Source of the DNA: Ilumatobacteraceae bacterium
Lineage (GTDB): Bacteria > Actinomycetota > Acidimicrobiia > Acidimicrobiales > Ilumatobacteraceae
Assembly (NCBI GenBank): GCA_035527095.1
Contig: DATLBC010000140.1
Location: 6,820-70,819 of the forward strand
Length of the DNA: 64,000 nucleotides
Reading direction: 5' to 3'
Shown here one piece after another: positions 800-34,973 of this stretch. Under the pieces are notes generated by a model. It saw only the letters and a program-made list of their open reading frames with translations, did no database searches and was not told the origin of the DNA. The first letter of the stretch is position 1. Every line of letters begins with the position of its first letter. The position numbers and the translations under genes are program-made.

Positions 800-1198
800 T
801 CAACCGGCATCGTTCCCCGACCGCGATGCGAGCGGCGCGAGCAGCTCGGTGACGCGTTCCTTGGGCCGACCGACGATCGCCGTGTCGGCGGTGACCACGA
901 CCGGTCGTTGCAGCAGTTGCTTGTGCTTGACCAACAGGTTCACGATCTGCTCGTCGGTCGCAGCGTCGTCGTCGGTCAATCCGAGCTTCTTCCACATGCT
1001 GTCGCGCCGTACCAGCGCCGTTGGCTCGTCCTCGAGCTTGGCGATGATCGACCGCAGGGTGTCCGCGTCCGGCGGTGTCTTGATGTACATCACGATGTCG
1101 ACCTCGACGCCCAGGTCTTCGGCAATGCGCACGGCATTGACGGAGGAGTTTCAATGCGCGTTGTGGAAGATGGTTGCGACTGCGTTGCTGCTGGCCAT
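800..1198 (-). CDS. ArsC/Spx-family (glutaredoxin-fold) reductase with in-frame TGA at the catalytic Cys position (candidate selenocysteine)
   Basis: The track ORF 800..1132 (…DIVMYIKTPPDADTLRSIIAKLED…LLQRPVVVTADTAIVGRPKERV) extends in the same frame to ATG 1198: MASSNAVATIFHNAH-[TGA 1153..1151]-NSSVNAVRIAEDLGVEV…. This aligns with the E. coli ArsC N-terminus ITIYHNPAC(12)GTSRNTLEMIRNSG, with the TGA opposite Cys12. Confidence 0.65.
1123..1139 (-). other. SECIS-like hairpin downstream of the arsC-like TGA
   Basis: On the coding strand, 11 nt after the TGA: CAAUGC-CGUGC-GCAUUG, a 6-bp perfect stem with a 5-nt loop containing GU. Confidence 0.4.
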
Positions 1199-7235: not shown

Positions 7236-7694
7236 ATGTTCTCCAAGTCCGATCATCGAGGCATCACGAACGGTCGTGCATCCGCACTTGCGTCGATGCT
7301 CGCATCAGTTGCGCTGACGCTGGGGGTTGCGGGGTGCGGGCCCGACGGACCCGACATGGTGGGCGGGCAGATCGTCGACGTCGACGACACCGACGACGTC
7401 GCGCTCAGTTCGGGCGACTCGGTTCGAATCGCCATGTCCGAATTCGAGTTCTCCCCCCACGAATTCATCGCCGAGCCCGGCGATTACTCCGGCGAACTCG
7501 TCAACGAGGGAGCGGTGCTGCACAATCTGACATTCGCCGACGGCACGTCGTACCCGGTGGCACCGGGCGAGTCCGTCACGATCGAGTTGCTGGTGCCCGA
7601 TGACGGCCTGACGTTCTTCTGCTCGATCGAAGGCCACGAAGCCGCCGGTATGACTGGCGAGATCCACACACCAGAGACGCACGACAGCACCTGA
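7236..7694 (+). CDS. cupredoxin (type-1 blue copper) lipoprotein, paralog
   Basis: ATG 7236. The lipobox is LTLGVAGC. Ligand pattern is …AVLHNL… and FFCSIEGHEAAGMTG (C-x4-H-x4-M). It sits in tandem, 4 nt after the previous gene. Confidence 0.85.
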   Translation: MFSKSDHRGITNGRASALASMLASVALTLGVAGCGPDGPDMVGGQIVDVDDTDDVALSSGDSVRIAMSEFEFSPHEFIAEPGDYSGELVNEGAVLHNLTFADGTSYPVAPGESVTIELLVPDDGLTFFCSIEGHEAAGMTGEIHTPETHDST

Positions 7695-29141: not shown

Positions 29142-30827
29142 TCAGGCACGGATGGCGACAGCGACCGGCTCGTCGTGCACCGACCGGGCGGCCGACTTCG
29201 CGTGGTAACTCGACCGGGTGAGCGGGCTCGCTTCGACGTGCCCGACGCCGTACGACTCGCCGAGCTGCTTCCACTGGTCGAACTCGGCCGGCTCTGCGTA
29301 GCGGGCGATCGGAAGGTGGTGCGACGTCGGGCGCAGGTACTGCCCGATCGTGACGATGTCGACGCCCAGGTCGGCGAGGTCGGCCAGCAACCCCTCGATC
29401 TCGTCGTCGGTCTCGCCGAGCCCGACCATGAACCCGGTCTTGGTGGTGAGCCCCGCTGCTTTGGCACGGGCGAGCACGCCGAGCGATCGGGCGTATCCGG
29501 CCGACGGCCGCACGGCGCGCTGCAAGCGAGCGACCGTCTCGACGTTGTGGTTCACCACATCGGGTCGCACCGCGAGCAGCAGGTCGAGCGCTGCCTCGTC
29601 GCCCTTCGCATCGGAGATCAGCGTTTCGATCTGCGTTGCTGGGCGACGCACGCGGATCGCCTCGACACACGCCGCCACATGGGCCATCCCACCGTCGGCG
29701 AGGTCGTCGCGTGCGACCATGGTCAGCACCGCATGGTCGAGGCCCATCCGGTCGATCGCCTCGGCGACCCGCGCCGGCTCGTCGCCTGCGGGCGAAAGCG
29801 GCTTGTTCGTGTCGACGAGACAGAACCCGCACGCTCGAGTGCAGCGCTCGCCCAGGACCATGAACGTGGCGGTGCCGTCGGCCCAACACTCGGACAGATT
29901 GGGGCAGCCCGCGTCCTCACACACAGTGACGAGGTCGAGATCGCGCACCGTCTTCTTGAGAGACATCACATCGGCGCCGAGTGCGACCTTTGGTCGCAGC
30001 CACGCGGGCTTGCGCGTCTCGATCGACAGGCCCTCCGTGACACCCGCAGCCTCGAGACGACCAGCAGCCCGGTCGGACACCAGCTTCACCTGCTCTCCCG
30101 GGCCCTCGCCCCGCGAGAACGCGGACACGTCGCGGCCGTCCGCGGCGTGCTTCCATGCGACGTCTTGTCGTTCGATGGCGCCGCCGGCCCACCGGTCAGC
30201 GGCGAGACGGGCGATCACGTCGACGACCTCACGCATCGACACGTCGACGCTTTCCTCGGCAAGCGACGTGACCGGCTTGTCGCCGATGCCACACGGCACG
30301 ATGTGGTCGCGCAGATAGGTCATGTCGGTCGTGACGTTGAGGGCGAAGCCGTGCATCGTGCGACCGTGCGCAAGCCGGACCCCGATCGCACAGATCTTGC
30401 GGGGCTGTACCGACGGGTCGGGGTGGTCGACGTCGAGCCAGACGCCGGCGAATCCCTCCAACCGACCGGCGTTCGCCAACCCGAGTTCGGCGAGCGCGTC
30501 GATGACGAGCCCCTCGACGTTGCACACGTGATCCGAGGCGCCCAGACGGTTGTCGACGTTGACGACCGGATACCCGACCAACTGGCCCGGGCCGTGGTAG
30601 GTGATGTCGCCACCGCGCTTGACCGACACCAGCTCGGCACCGACCACCGCGGGCTCGCAGCGGAGGTTGTCGGCAAGGTTCGCTCGCTTGCCATGGGTGA
30701 ACACGTGCGGATGTTCGAGCAGCAGCAGGTGCTGTCCCTCGCCGCGCTCGAACACGGCCGTCTGCACGGCCAACGCTTCGCGGTATGGCACCCGCCCCAA
30801 CCAGCGGACGCGCAACGGGCCAGTCAC
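29142..30827 (-). CDS. lipB-lipA: fused lipoyl(octanoyl) transferase LipB / lipoyl synthase LipA
   Basis: A single 561-aa ORF. LipB motifs lie in residues 1 to about 215 (LLLLEHPHVFTHG, GGDITYHGPGQLVGYP, RKICAIGV, IVPCGI). After a roughly 50-aa linker come the LipA motifs (CEDAGCPNLSEC, CTRACGFCLV radical-SAM CxxxCxxC, …HNVETV…GLGETDDE…ITIGQYLRP…SSYHA). Confidence 0.9.
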   Translation of the reverse strand: MTGPLRVRWLGRVPYREALAVQTAVFERGEGQHLLLLEHPHVFTHGKRANLADNLRCEPAVVGAELVSVKRGGDITYHGPGQLVGYPVVNVDNRLGASDHVCNVEGLVIDALAELGLANAGRLEGFAGVWLDVDHPDPSVQPRKICAIGVRLAHGRTMHGFALNVTTDMTYLRDHIVPCGIGDKPVTSLAEESVDVSMREVVDVIARLAADRWAGGAIERQDVAWKHAADGRDVSAFSRGEGPGEQVKLVSDRAAGRLEAAGVTEGLSIETRKPAWLRPKVALGADVMSLKKTVRDLDLVTVCEDAGCPNLSECWADGTATFMVLGERCTRACGFCLVDTNKPLSPAGDEPARVAEAIDRMGLDHAVLTMVARDDLADGGMAHVAACVEAIRVRRPATQIETLISDAKGDEAALDLLLAVRPDVVNHNVETVARLQRAVRPSAGYARSLGVLARAKAAGLTTKTGFMVGLGETDDEIEGLLADLADLGVDIVTIGQYLRPTSHHLPIARYAEPAEFDQWKQLGESYGVGHVEASPLTRSSYHAKSAARSVHDEPVAVAIRA

Positions 30828-33754: not shown

Positions 33755-34180
33755 TCATGGTGTTTCGAGCACCCAGTTGCGTTGCTGGTCGCCGCGGCGC
33801 AGTATCAGCACCCGATTCGACCCGTCGGCAGCGCTCACGTCGAACTCGATCCGGCAGCGCTGCTCAGCGACCGCGATCTCGGTGCAGCGGCCATCAGCGT
33901 CGGCCGTGACCGGCTGCAGGCGGCGGTCGCCCGTCGCGAGCGAAAAGCCCGCCAGGTCATCGTCGACGCCGCCGACTTCGACATCCACGGAGAACAATGC
34001 GTCGGTCTCGTCCGCACCGAACACGACGACATCGACATCTCCGACGCGCACGACGTCGCCGACTTCGGCAGGTTCGACGGCCGCTGATTCGTTCGCGAGT
34101 TGCAGCAGCAGCACCCCACCGGCCAGCAGGATCATCAGCCCGACACCGACCGACAGCAGCAGCAGCGTCCGGGTCTTCAT
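33755..34180 (-). CDS. membrane-anchored hypothetical protein
   Basis: The N-terminal TM helix is MKTRTLLLLSVGVGLMILLAGGVLLL, followed by an acidic beta-rich ectodomain. Confidence 0.6.
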   Translation of the reverse strand: MKTRTLLLLSVGVGLMILLAGGVLLLQLANESAAVEPAEVGDVVRVGDVDVVVFGADETDALFSVDVEVGGVDDDLAGFSLATGDRRLQPVTADADGRCTEIAVAEQRCRIEFDVSAADGSNRVLILRRGDQQRNWVLETP

Positions 34181-34325
34181 CGCCGTCCGAGCCTACGGAT
34201 CGCGCTCGAAGGTCGCACCGTCATGCCGCCACGCCGTCACACGGCGCCTGGCTGATGTGACGAATCTCGAAACACGACCGACCGTGACGTTCAAAGGCCC
34301 AGGCGCTGTCACTACCTTCCGTGCG

Positions 34326-34973
34326 GTGAGAACGACACGACGCCACGCCGTCAGCGGCGCAATCGGGGCCGCTGTGCTGCTGCTCGCAGCGACCGCCTGC
34401 GGCTCCGAGTCGAACGATTCGACCACCGAGTCGCTGCCCGGGGCCGTGGTCGAAGCGACGACCGGCCCGACCGAGGCACCCATCACCTCAGCGCCGACGA
34501 CGGCCGGCACCGGCGACACATCACCACCGGCCGTCGACGCCGACCCAGCGCCGGCCCAACCCGCCGTCTTCGTGCCCGAGGCACTGCAGTTCACCGCCCC
34601 CCTCGTCGGAGGAGGCACCTTCGACGGCGCGGCTGCCGCCGGCAAGCCGACGGTGTTCTGGTTCTGGGCGCCCACTTGAAGCGCGTGCAACCGTGAAGCC
34701 ACCTCGGTCGAGGAGGCAGCAGTGCAGTTCCAGGATCAGGCCAACTTCTACGGTGTTGCATGGACCGGAAGCGACGACTCGTTCCAGGGGTTCATCGACA
34801 AGCACGGCCTGACGTTCCCGCAGATCAGCGATGATCCCGGCGACGTCTTCGACCGATTCGATGTGTCGTATCAGCCGGCATTCGCGATCGTGAACACCGA
34901 TGGATCGACCGAACTGGTCCTCGGAGCCATCGACGACCAACTGCTCGGCCAGATCATCTCCGAAGCGACTTGA
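34326..34973 (+). CDS. TlpA/ResA-like thioredoxin-fold lipoprotein with TGA in place of the first Cys of CxxC (candidate selenoprotein, U-S-A-C)
   Basis: Track ORFs 33777..34679 and 34722..34973 are in the same frame, separated only by TGA 34677..34679. The N-terminus (GTG 34326) is RTTRRHAVSGAIGAAVLLLAATAC (lipoprotein signal). The active-site region reads …GKPTVFWFWAPT-U-SAC-NREA…, and the downstream fold includes …GLTFPQISDDPGDVFDRFDVSYQPAFAIVNTDG…. Confidence 0.7.
34698..34717 (+). other. SECIS-like hairpin downstream of the tlpA-like TGA
   Basis: 18 nt after the TGA: GCCACCUC-GGUC-GAGGAGGC, giving 7 Watson-Crick pairs, one A·A mismatch and a GGUC tetraloop. Confidence 0.45.

Follow-up and report, generated by a model that had tools for sequence, protein, structure and literature searches.

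Does the TGA at positions 34,677 to 34,679 of this DNA end a gene, or does it encode selenocysteine (Sec) in the middle of one? The window, by which we mean the whole 64,000-nucleotide stretch of an Ilumatobacteraceae contig that was analysed, holds two open reading frames, 33777..34679 and 34722..34973, which a preliminary description made from the letters had placed in one and the same frame, with only this TGA and 14 sense codons between them. Re-checking gave the same result. That description proposed that the frame, read through, encodes a lipoprotein of thioredoxin fold whose CxxC motif has Sec as its nucleophile, and that a hairpin just downstream serves as SECIS element. This central claim is supported here by the occurrence of TGA in 80 of 80 related species, by an intact downstream frame and by covariation in the hairpin. 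The features on which the argument turns are collected in Table 1.

Table 1. Coordinates of the features discussed in the text, counted from the first letter of the window
Feature	Position	Strand	Description and support
Predicted selenoprotein coding sequence	34326..34973	+	215 codons, GTG start, terminal TGA 34971-34973; translation, with Pfam and PDB matches across the internal TGA
Predicted signal peptide and lipobox LLLAATA-C	34326..34400	+	Read from the sequence; codon of the lipidated Cys25 at 34398-34400
UGA, putative selenocysteine codon	34677..34679	+	First, nucleophilic position of U-S-A-C; TGA in 80/80 related species
Resolving Cys codon of UxxC	34686..34688	+	Residue invariant in all orthologues; TGC/TGT synonymous variation
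Candidate SECIS hairpin of the redoxin	34698..34717	+	8-position stem (7 pairs and A.A), apical loop GGUC 34706-34709
Q-P-A cis-proline loop of the thioredoxin fold	34872..34880	+	Invariant in 80 orthologues; aligned with QPA of MPT53/DsbF
Divergent 141-aa membrane-anchored protein	33755..34180	-	No Pfam match; exactly two cysteines; beside the redoxin in 51 loci
Predicted ArsC-family selenoprotein, motif U-N-S-S	800..1198	-	UGA 1151-1153; translation, TIGR00014, Pfam ArsC
Candidate SECIS hairpin of the ArsC-like gene	1123-1139	-	CAAUGC-CGUGC-GCAUUG; nearly invariant in relatives

A redoxin frame with a single internal TGA

Across 34326..34973 on the forward strand, the TGA under study is the sole internal stop. 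The start codon of the redoxin was set by its orthologues, which begin MRTTRR... or VRTHRR... at this point. The translation runs ...LLLAATAC-GSES...GKPTVFWFWAPT, then the TGA, then SACNREATSVEEAA...VSYQPAFAIVNTDG... up to the terminal stop. In its N-terminal part it reads VRTTRRHAVSGAIGAAVLLLAATAC-GSES, with T-R-R present in the n-region of the signal peptide, followed by a Pro/Ala/Thr-rich linker and by FTAPLVGGGTFDGAAAAGKPTVFWFWAPT; the TGA comes next, then SAC-NREATSVEEAA...GVAWTG...LTFPQISDD... and finally SYQPAFAIVNTDG. When the stop is replaced by Cys, matches to Pfam AhpC-TSA (3e-14), Redoxin (2e-8) and Thioredoxin all cross the TGA.

The redoxin gene is 100% identical on two contigs from two different metagenome samples, so the TGA is no assembly error. 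Nor is the genetic code altered globally. TGA is the stop codon of 64 of the 81 orthologous sequences described below and of most open reading frames in the window, so we discarded genetic codes 4 and 25, in which TGA is reassigned throughout. Automatic annotation, as the preliminary description had anticipated, splits the gene: in both metagenome contigs it appears as fragments of 131 aa and 83 aa, neither with a Pfam domain.

Conservation of the TGA among orthologues

One genome per species was scanned for the redoxin, which yielded 80 loci or, with the window, 81 sequences. Nearly all of the 80 are from Ilumatobacteraceae or other Acidimicrobiia MAGs; among them is also the isolate Ilumatobacter nonamiensis YM16-303 (locus L023), which carries a TGA orthologue. 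The order Lpd, 141-aa protein, redoxin and epimerase is kept across loci, and owing to this conserved synteny the compared genes can be regarded as orthologues. Whether orthologues have TGC/TGT or TGA at the codon in question had been posed as a check, and the outcome is uniform: all 80 species representatives retrieved have TGA, in proteins that are 41-77% identical to the redoxin of the window.

The sequence beyond the TGA behaves as coding sequence in nearly all of these species. In 80 of the 81 sequences, the frame stays open for 95-100 codons past the TGA, and nucleotide diversity at codon positions 1, 2 and 3 of the orthologue set is 0.27, 0.24 and 0.43, respectively. Such a bias toward third positions is the signature of translated sequence under selection, to which this alignment points; the locus is not degraded. 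The resolving Cys is invariant, as are the motifs E-A, S-V-E, G-V-x-W and Q-P-A.

Alignment with Cys-containing proteins also bears out the claim that the TGA stands at the nucleophilic Cys of the CxxC motif. It coincides with the first Cys of this motif in eight Cys-type homologues as well as in MPT53 and DsbF, and full-length Cys-type homologues read WAPWCxxCNREA in this region. A protein search returned dozens of fragments of 118-154 residues without a Pfam domain. In those inspected, the N-terminal regions vary widely, and all of them terminate in ...(F/S)WAPT at the identical stop. The putative lipoprotein signal (...LLLAATAC) that had been read in the redoxin is seen in the translation; of the 81 orthologues, 76 have a lipobox-like motif ahead of the domain, and the N-terminal fragments have one as well. 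On this comparison, we take the Sec form of the redoxin to be old and to have become fixed in Ilumatobacteraceae and related Acidimicrobiia.

A covarying hairpin downstream of the TGA

The redoxin hairpin has the sequence GCCACCUC-GGUC-GAGGAGGC and folds as predicted; the 7 bp with one A.A mismatch, the GGUC loop and its distance from the UGA were all re-checked and stand as originally described. The hairpin spans nucleotides 19-38 past the UGA, its loop begins 26 nt past it, and in the window it lies within the codons of A-T-S-V-E-E-A. As a bacterial SECIS we counted a small apical loop with G (G-U) located roughly 16-37 nt from the UGA; the GGUC loop at 26 nt lies within this definition. The preliminary description had given the same loop for the E. 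coli fdhF SECIS, and inspection of the K-12 sequence bore this out.

Comparison across species provides the evidence for this element. All orthologues carry the hairpin. Among the 74 distinct orthologous sequences it is kept with 89.5% of cells paired, and the GGUC loop is the same in all 74, down to the wobble positions of Ser UCG and Val GUC. Covariation, which had been suggested as a further check, is present: compensatory changes were found at four of the eight pairs, in 30 cells, among them 16 changes of C27-G36 to U-A, where one U.G intermediate also occurs, and 8 changes of C24-G39 to U-A. None of 500 shuffles reached the observed covariation score, and every slid-register control scored lower. 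Pair 25-38 is mismatched in 61 of the 74 sequences and Watson-Crick in 13. Because the arms encode the conserved residues A-P-S-V-E-E-A, nucleotide conservation in the hairpin could be partly driven by the protein; synonymous sites are the only ones where changes escape this objection. Position 27 is a third codon position with synonymous change, and the same holds for the other three in most sequences; the synonymous changes fall in Ala GCY, Pro CCY and Glu GAR codons.

Folding energy and family models do not help in this case. Relative to shuffled sequences, the hairpin has a z of -0.15 to -1.0 in this 67% GC DNA, no better than chance. The validated fdhF SECIS of E. coli, extracted and folded alike, has a z of 0.10, so the test does not discriminate. 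Searching the whole window with Rfam at gathering thresholds gave no match, a result that is uninformative either way because bacterial SECIS elements are described as unlike those of eukaryotes and archaea, both in sequence and in structure (PMC1088965), and are poorly represented in Rfam (2026 preprint). It is the cross-species comparison that argues for a hairpin that is more than chance.

In three loci (L033, L037 and L056), a Cys paralogue lies directly upstream of the Sec-form redoxin. These paralogues have no hairpin in the register of the Sec form, and the corresponding region does not have the Sec-type conservation. At L056, the Sec-form gene is frameshifted inside the hairpin: 1 nt of a run of C is missing, perhaps through an error of assembly.

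A second gene with TGA at a catalytic cysteine

The preliminary description had pointed to a second gene in the window with the same phenomenon, and this observation holds as well. The minus-strand gene listed in Table 1 translates as ...TIFHNAH-[TGA]-NSSVNAV..., with TGA at the catalytic Cys, and all 80 of the metagenomic relatives compared, at 67-92% identity, share this TGA. Its product scores 94 bits against TIGR00014, below the curated cutoff of 106. In the relatives, the TGA is accompanied by a near-invariant hairpin, CAAUGC-CGUGN-GCAUUG, in which G-U occupies positions 22-23 from the UGA, a spacing close to that of fdhF. The folding energy of this hairpin gives z of -0.46 to +0.53 versus shuffles. 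Its core never varies, and the support for a SECIS function would come from conservation, not from covariation. The gene appears to be an ordinary member of the arsenate reductase (UxxS) selenoprotein family.

In a relaxed scan of the window for further genes with in-frame TGA, 157 candidates were obtained, none of them convincing by eye. A strict scan missed even the redoxin and the ArsC-like gene, and GC3 does not separate reading frames in a window of 67% GC.

Selenocysteine machinery and the alternative readings of the TGA

Genes for Sec incorporation were sought in the window and in 1.76 Mb of flanks (162 loci). Within this scope, ARAGORN found no tRNA-Sec, and tblastn with E. coli queries found no homologue of SelA, SelB or SelD. 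One cross-match to SelB was seen, in L081, adjoining genes for tRNA-Thr/Met/Trp; it was set aside as probably EF-Tu. Evidently, the Sec machinery genes are unlinked to the two selenoprotein loci. Within the genus Ilumatobacter, both I. coccineus and I. nonamiensis YM16-303 are SelD+/SelA+/SelB+ (Peng et al. 2016, PMC5029168, Table S1), and 15 and 10 selenoproteins are known from them, respectively, versus 1 in most Actinobacteria (PMC5029168, Table S2). The remark in the preliminary description that redox selenoproteins are rare in Actinobacteria fails for Ilumatobacter in view of these counts. Universal Sec machinery has likewise been described in Actinomarina, which also belongs to Acidimicrobiia (2026 preprint). 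In the literature we found these supplementary tables and the Actinomarina preprint, no dedicated paper on selenoproteins of Ilumatobacter or Acidimicrobiia, and no report of selenium demonstrated in an Ilumatobacter protein.

From the comparative evidence, we estimate a probability of about 0.92 that 34326..34973 encodes one 215-residue, SECIS-bearing selenoprotein and not two fragments. Of the other readings, recoding of the UGA to a different residue survives best, and even to this we give only a slim chance. The residue would be Cys or another amino acid, inserted by a SelB-like factor together with a tRNA-Sec-like tRNA, or Trp or Cys from near-cognate read-through aided by the hairpin. 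UGA-to-Cys recoding via tRNA-Sec-like tRNAs has indeed been proposed in some bacteria, the residue inserted at a recoded UGA looks the same to sequence analysis whichever it is, and the genomic regions that we searched hold no Sec machinery. However, the genus possesses SelA, SelB and SelD along with 10-15 known selenoproteins, and a catalytic Cys position in a redox motif together with a G-U loop is the classic signature of Sec. In addition, a recoding hairpin kept for the insertion of Cys would be of little use, because a TGC codon suffices for that purpose and Cys paralogues adjoin.

It is less probable still, to the point of being negligible, that translation stops at the TGA and restarts, so that the locus would produce a lipoprotein stub and a separate cytoplasmic polypeptide of 83 residues from 34722..34973. 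TGA usually serves as stop codon in this DNA and a GTG does stand 14 codons past it in the window, yet neither half makes up a complete thioredoxin fold, and the matches in PDB and Pfam run across the break. The 14 codons between the TGA and GTG 34722 form the best-conserved stretch of the redoxin (xxCNREAPSVEEA, with the Cys invariant), the GTG of the window is replaced by non-start codons (CAG, AAG etc.) in many orthologues, and no start codon downstream of the TGA is conserved among them. Since the intervening codons are the most conserved ones and the GTG is not kept as a start, a restart is ruled out.

The weakest reading, a pseudogene in which a TGC-to-TGA nonsense mutation struck a Cys-type redoxin and left two fragments as decaying remnants, would need just one C-to-A change and agrees with the two fragments given by gene callers and with the frameshifted hairpin of L056, but this defect is possibly an artefact of assembly, and with an identical TGA in all 80 species at 41-77% protein identity, an intact downstream frame, third-position-biased variation, a covarying hairpin and the same pattern at the catalytic Cys of the ArsC-like gene, it is in effect refuted. 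Nor are the orthologues copies of one contaminating sequence, which is excluded by their divergence.

Nature and proposed activity of the redoxin

The closest solved structures of the predicted selenoprotein are DsbE/MPT53 of M. tuberculosis (1LU4; E 4e-25, 39.5% identity over 114 residues) and DsbF (3IOS; E 4e-23, 38.7% identity over 124 residues). Both matches span the TGA, align their CxxC with U-S-A-C and have the QPA loop in common with the redoxin. ResA, StoA and the thioredoxin domain of MsrAB are much weaker structure matches, with an E of 2e-7 for ResA in the PDB. No dedicated NCBIfam model matches the redoxin clade; the best is ResA, at 42 bits versus a cut-off of 170, and StoA reaches 33 versus 210. 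The annotated neighbours include Lpd, E2, LipB-LipA, epimerase and amine oxidase, and ccdA, resB and resC are absent among them. With scores below the family cut-offs and no linked ccdA/resBC, a cytochrome-c-maturation reductase of the ResA/TlpA/CcmG kind was rejected. The original label of a TlpA/ResA-type redoxin thus stands in so far as it names a redoxin of thioredoxin fold; a ResA or TlpA proper it is not, as DsbE/MPT53 and DsbF are closer.

Because a signal peptide and a lipobox are present, the redoxin most likely leaves the cytoplasm and is tethered by a lipid to the outer side of the cytoplasmic membrane. Given the structure matches, the alignment of the CxxC and QPA motifs and the prevalence of the lipobox among orthologues (76/81), the best-supported reading is that of an exported, lipid-anchored actinobacterial thiol-disulfide oxidoreductase of the DsbE/DsbF type, in which Sec would be the attacking residue.

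From the anatomy of the element, its conservation and the established E. coli mechanism, we infer how the recoding step would proceed. During translation, the hairpin with its apical GGUC would recruit SelB, an elongation factor specific for Sec, carrying Sec-tRNA(Sec), and the UGA would then be read as selenocysteine instead of as a stop. Exported and anchored by means of its signal peptide and lipobox, the redoxin would have envelope proteins as its substrates in thiol-disulfide exchange. Sec would act as the nucleophile, and the reaction would pass through a selenenylsulfide with the invariant Cys three residues further on.

A two-cysteine neighbour

The 141-aa protein encoded beside the redoxin has an N-terminal membrane anchor. 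All 51 sequences keep its Cys99 and Cys109, the remainder being ~53% identical. As a working hypothesis, it could be a partner or substrate of the redoxin. We are doubtful of the stronger proposal that the Sec redoxin and this two-Cys protein would form a dedicated envelope redox pair whose pairing and lineage-wide fixation are perhaps undescribed, but keep it as a speculation. If it were true, a selenium-dependent extracytoplasmic disulfide system would be fixed across a family of aerobic aquatic Actinobacteria.

Consequences for annotation

Current database records illustrate how such a gene is handled. In an NCBI record from the MAG of a relative (P0099), the fragment is named 'hypothetical protein'. 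A JGI record (P0003) was translated with genetic code 4; as TGA was read there as a sense codon, the Sec position is filled by Trp and the call runs past the true terminal TGA. A protein profile combined with a GGUC-loop SECIS motif would permit correct annotation in many Ilumatobacteraceae genomes.

The redoxin would represent a strictly conserved selenoenzyme, predicted to be exported, of abundant marine, freshwater and soil Actinobacteria. As the cultured I. nonamiensis YM16-303 carries the gene, the function of Sec versus Cys in the cell envelope is open to experiment. Knowledge of selenoproteins in general is unchanged by this locus, and its practical value lies in annotation.

Relation to known selenoproteins and SECIS elements

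Both genes have counterparts among published families. A protein named 'thiol-disulfide isomerase-like' (UXXC) and an 'arsenate reductase' (UXXS) were predicted as selenoproteins in Sargasso Sea data (Zhang et al. 2005, PMC1088965), and the two families are listed as cd02966/UxxC and TIGR00014/UxxS in a 2026 review (PMC13188914). Each of them was found in only 3 of ~5,200 genomes (Peng et al. 2016, PMC5029168), a count that may include the two Ilumatobacter isolates. By its Pfam matches and its U-S-A-C motif, the redoxin combines a TlpA-like domain with UxxC, and it can provisionally be placed in the thiol-disulfide isomerase-like family, an assignment by domain and motif. The family shares with it the TlpA-like domain, the UxxC with Sec first, the widespread Cys homologues and a SECIS that follows directly downstream and has G in its small apical loop. 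The 800..1198 gene corresponds in the same way to the 'arsenate reductase (UxxS)' family, with its ArsC domain, its U-N-S-S at the catalytic Cys and its candidate SECIS with a G-U loop.

The redoxin call is thus correct but not new: the literature already contained this type of family and of SECIS as well as the richness of Ilumatobacter in selenoproteins. In the literature cited here, we found no mention that the Sec form is fixed among Ilumatobacteraceae/Acidimicrobiia (80 of 80 species), that the SECIS has an invariant GGUC loop and covaries, that the redoxin is a lipoprotein, that it is related to DsbE/DsbF or that it has a two-Cys neighbour. These points add detail to a known kind of system and do not define a new one.

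Among characterized enzymes, the thiol-disulfide oxidoreductases MPT53 and DsbF, which are secreted or lipid-anchored, resemble the redoxin in their WFW-x-P-x-C-x-x-C-x-x-EAP and QPA motifs and in being actinobacterial and exported. They differ in that they use Cys where the redoxin would use Sec, and in that W precedes their active site whereas T precedes that of the redoxin. Oxidase behaviour has been reported for MPT53 and DsbF, and it is not simply transferable to a Sec enzyme. ResA, TlpA, CcmG and StoA, membrane-anchored reductases that act in cytochrome c maturation and in sporulation, share the fold and the position of the CxxC with the redoxin, and match it less well in sequence. With regard to the recoding element, the E. 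coli fdhF SECIS is the nearest reference. Its loop starts 18 nt past the UGA and not 26 nt as in the redoxin, and the redoxin hairpin has no bulged U and is usually mismatched at the position four pairs below the loop. The two are alike in lying within the coding region just past the UGA and in presenting the identical GGUC loop.

Sec-type and Cys-type redoxins side by side

In three genomes (L033, L037 and L056), a tandem Cys-type paralogue lies directly 5' of the Sec-type redoxin gene, placing a selenocysteine form and a cysteine form next to each other. The paralogues carry the motif WAPWC[SG]VCNREA with a TGC codon, and the GGUC hairpin is absent from all three of these Cys copies at the register that it occupies in the Sec form. 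The Sec-type copy of L056 is also the only broken one among the 81 copies compared (the window and 80 species-representative orthologues): a 1-nt deletion within a C run, on the 5' side of its SECIS stem, shifts the frame. The copy is a genuine pseudogene, or else the assembly went wrong in this homopolymer.

At another locus, L165, an annotation artefact masks a selenoprotein. TGA was taken for a sense codon when genes were called on this contig, so that the database entry P0003 has Trp at the Sec position and runs past the true terminal TGA, gaining 14 extra residues.

Features of the window and of related loci
Feature	Location	Strand	Details
ArsC-family gene	window 800..1198	-	TGA 1151-1153; hairpin 1123-1139
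LipB/LplA-type octanoyl/lipoyl transferase domain fused to lipoyl synthase	window 29142..30827	-	561 residues
Two-Cys neighbour	window 33755..34180	-	141 residues; adjoins Sec redoxin gene, divergent orientation
Sec redoxin signal peptide	window 34326..34400	+	
Cys-type paralogues	L033 ~1646; L037 ~9382; L056 ~6568		each ~720-760 nt upstream of Sec copy
Broken Sec-type copy	L056 ~7325-7370		1-nt deletion
P0003	L165:246-905		JGI 3300055292
92-nt tRNA calls	L012 6582-6673; L013 3100-3191		ARAGORN

Export and genomic surroundings

The signal peptide of the Sec redoxin and the orthologous N-termini start with M/V-R-T-x-R-R-(R)-A-A-x-G-A, a twin-arginine-like n-region that precedes the lipobox. Judged from this motif, the selenoprotein could be exported by the Tat instead of the Sec route; Tat-signal models gave no match at E <= 0.01. 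The divergent neighbour, a protein that matches no Pfam family and carries a membrane anchor at its N-terminus, is kept beside the Sec redoxin gene in 51 loci. Although its overall identity across these loci is ~53%, its sole two cysteines, C99 and C109, are invariant (51/51), and it is possibly a partner or substrate of the redoxin.

Elsewhere in the window, the lipoyl synthase part of the fusion protein comprises LIAS_N and Radical_SAM, and the fusion gene adjoins genes for E2 and lipoamide dehydrogenase. The two unusually long tRNAs called in the flanks of two relatives are ruled out as tRNA-Sec by their anticodons (Trp-CCA and Met-CAT), and are probably false positives.

A second TGA-containing gene

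The ArsC-family gene has TGA at its catalytic Cys position, within the motif U-N-S-S. Both the TGA and the hairpin, an almost invariant CAAUGC-CGUGN-GCAUUG, are common to all 80 metagenomic relatives, and the gene is consistent with a selenoprotein family that is already known, 'arsenate reductase UxxS'.
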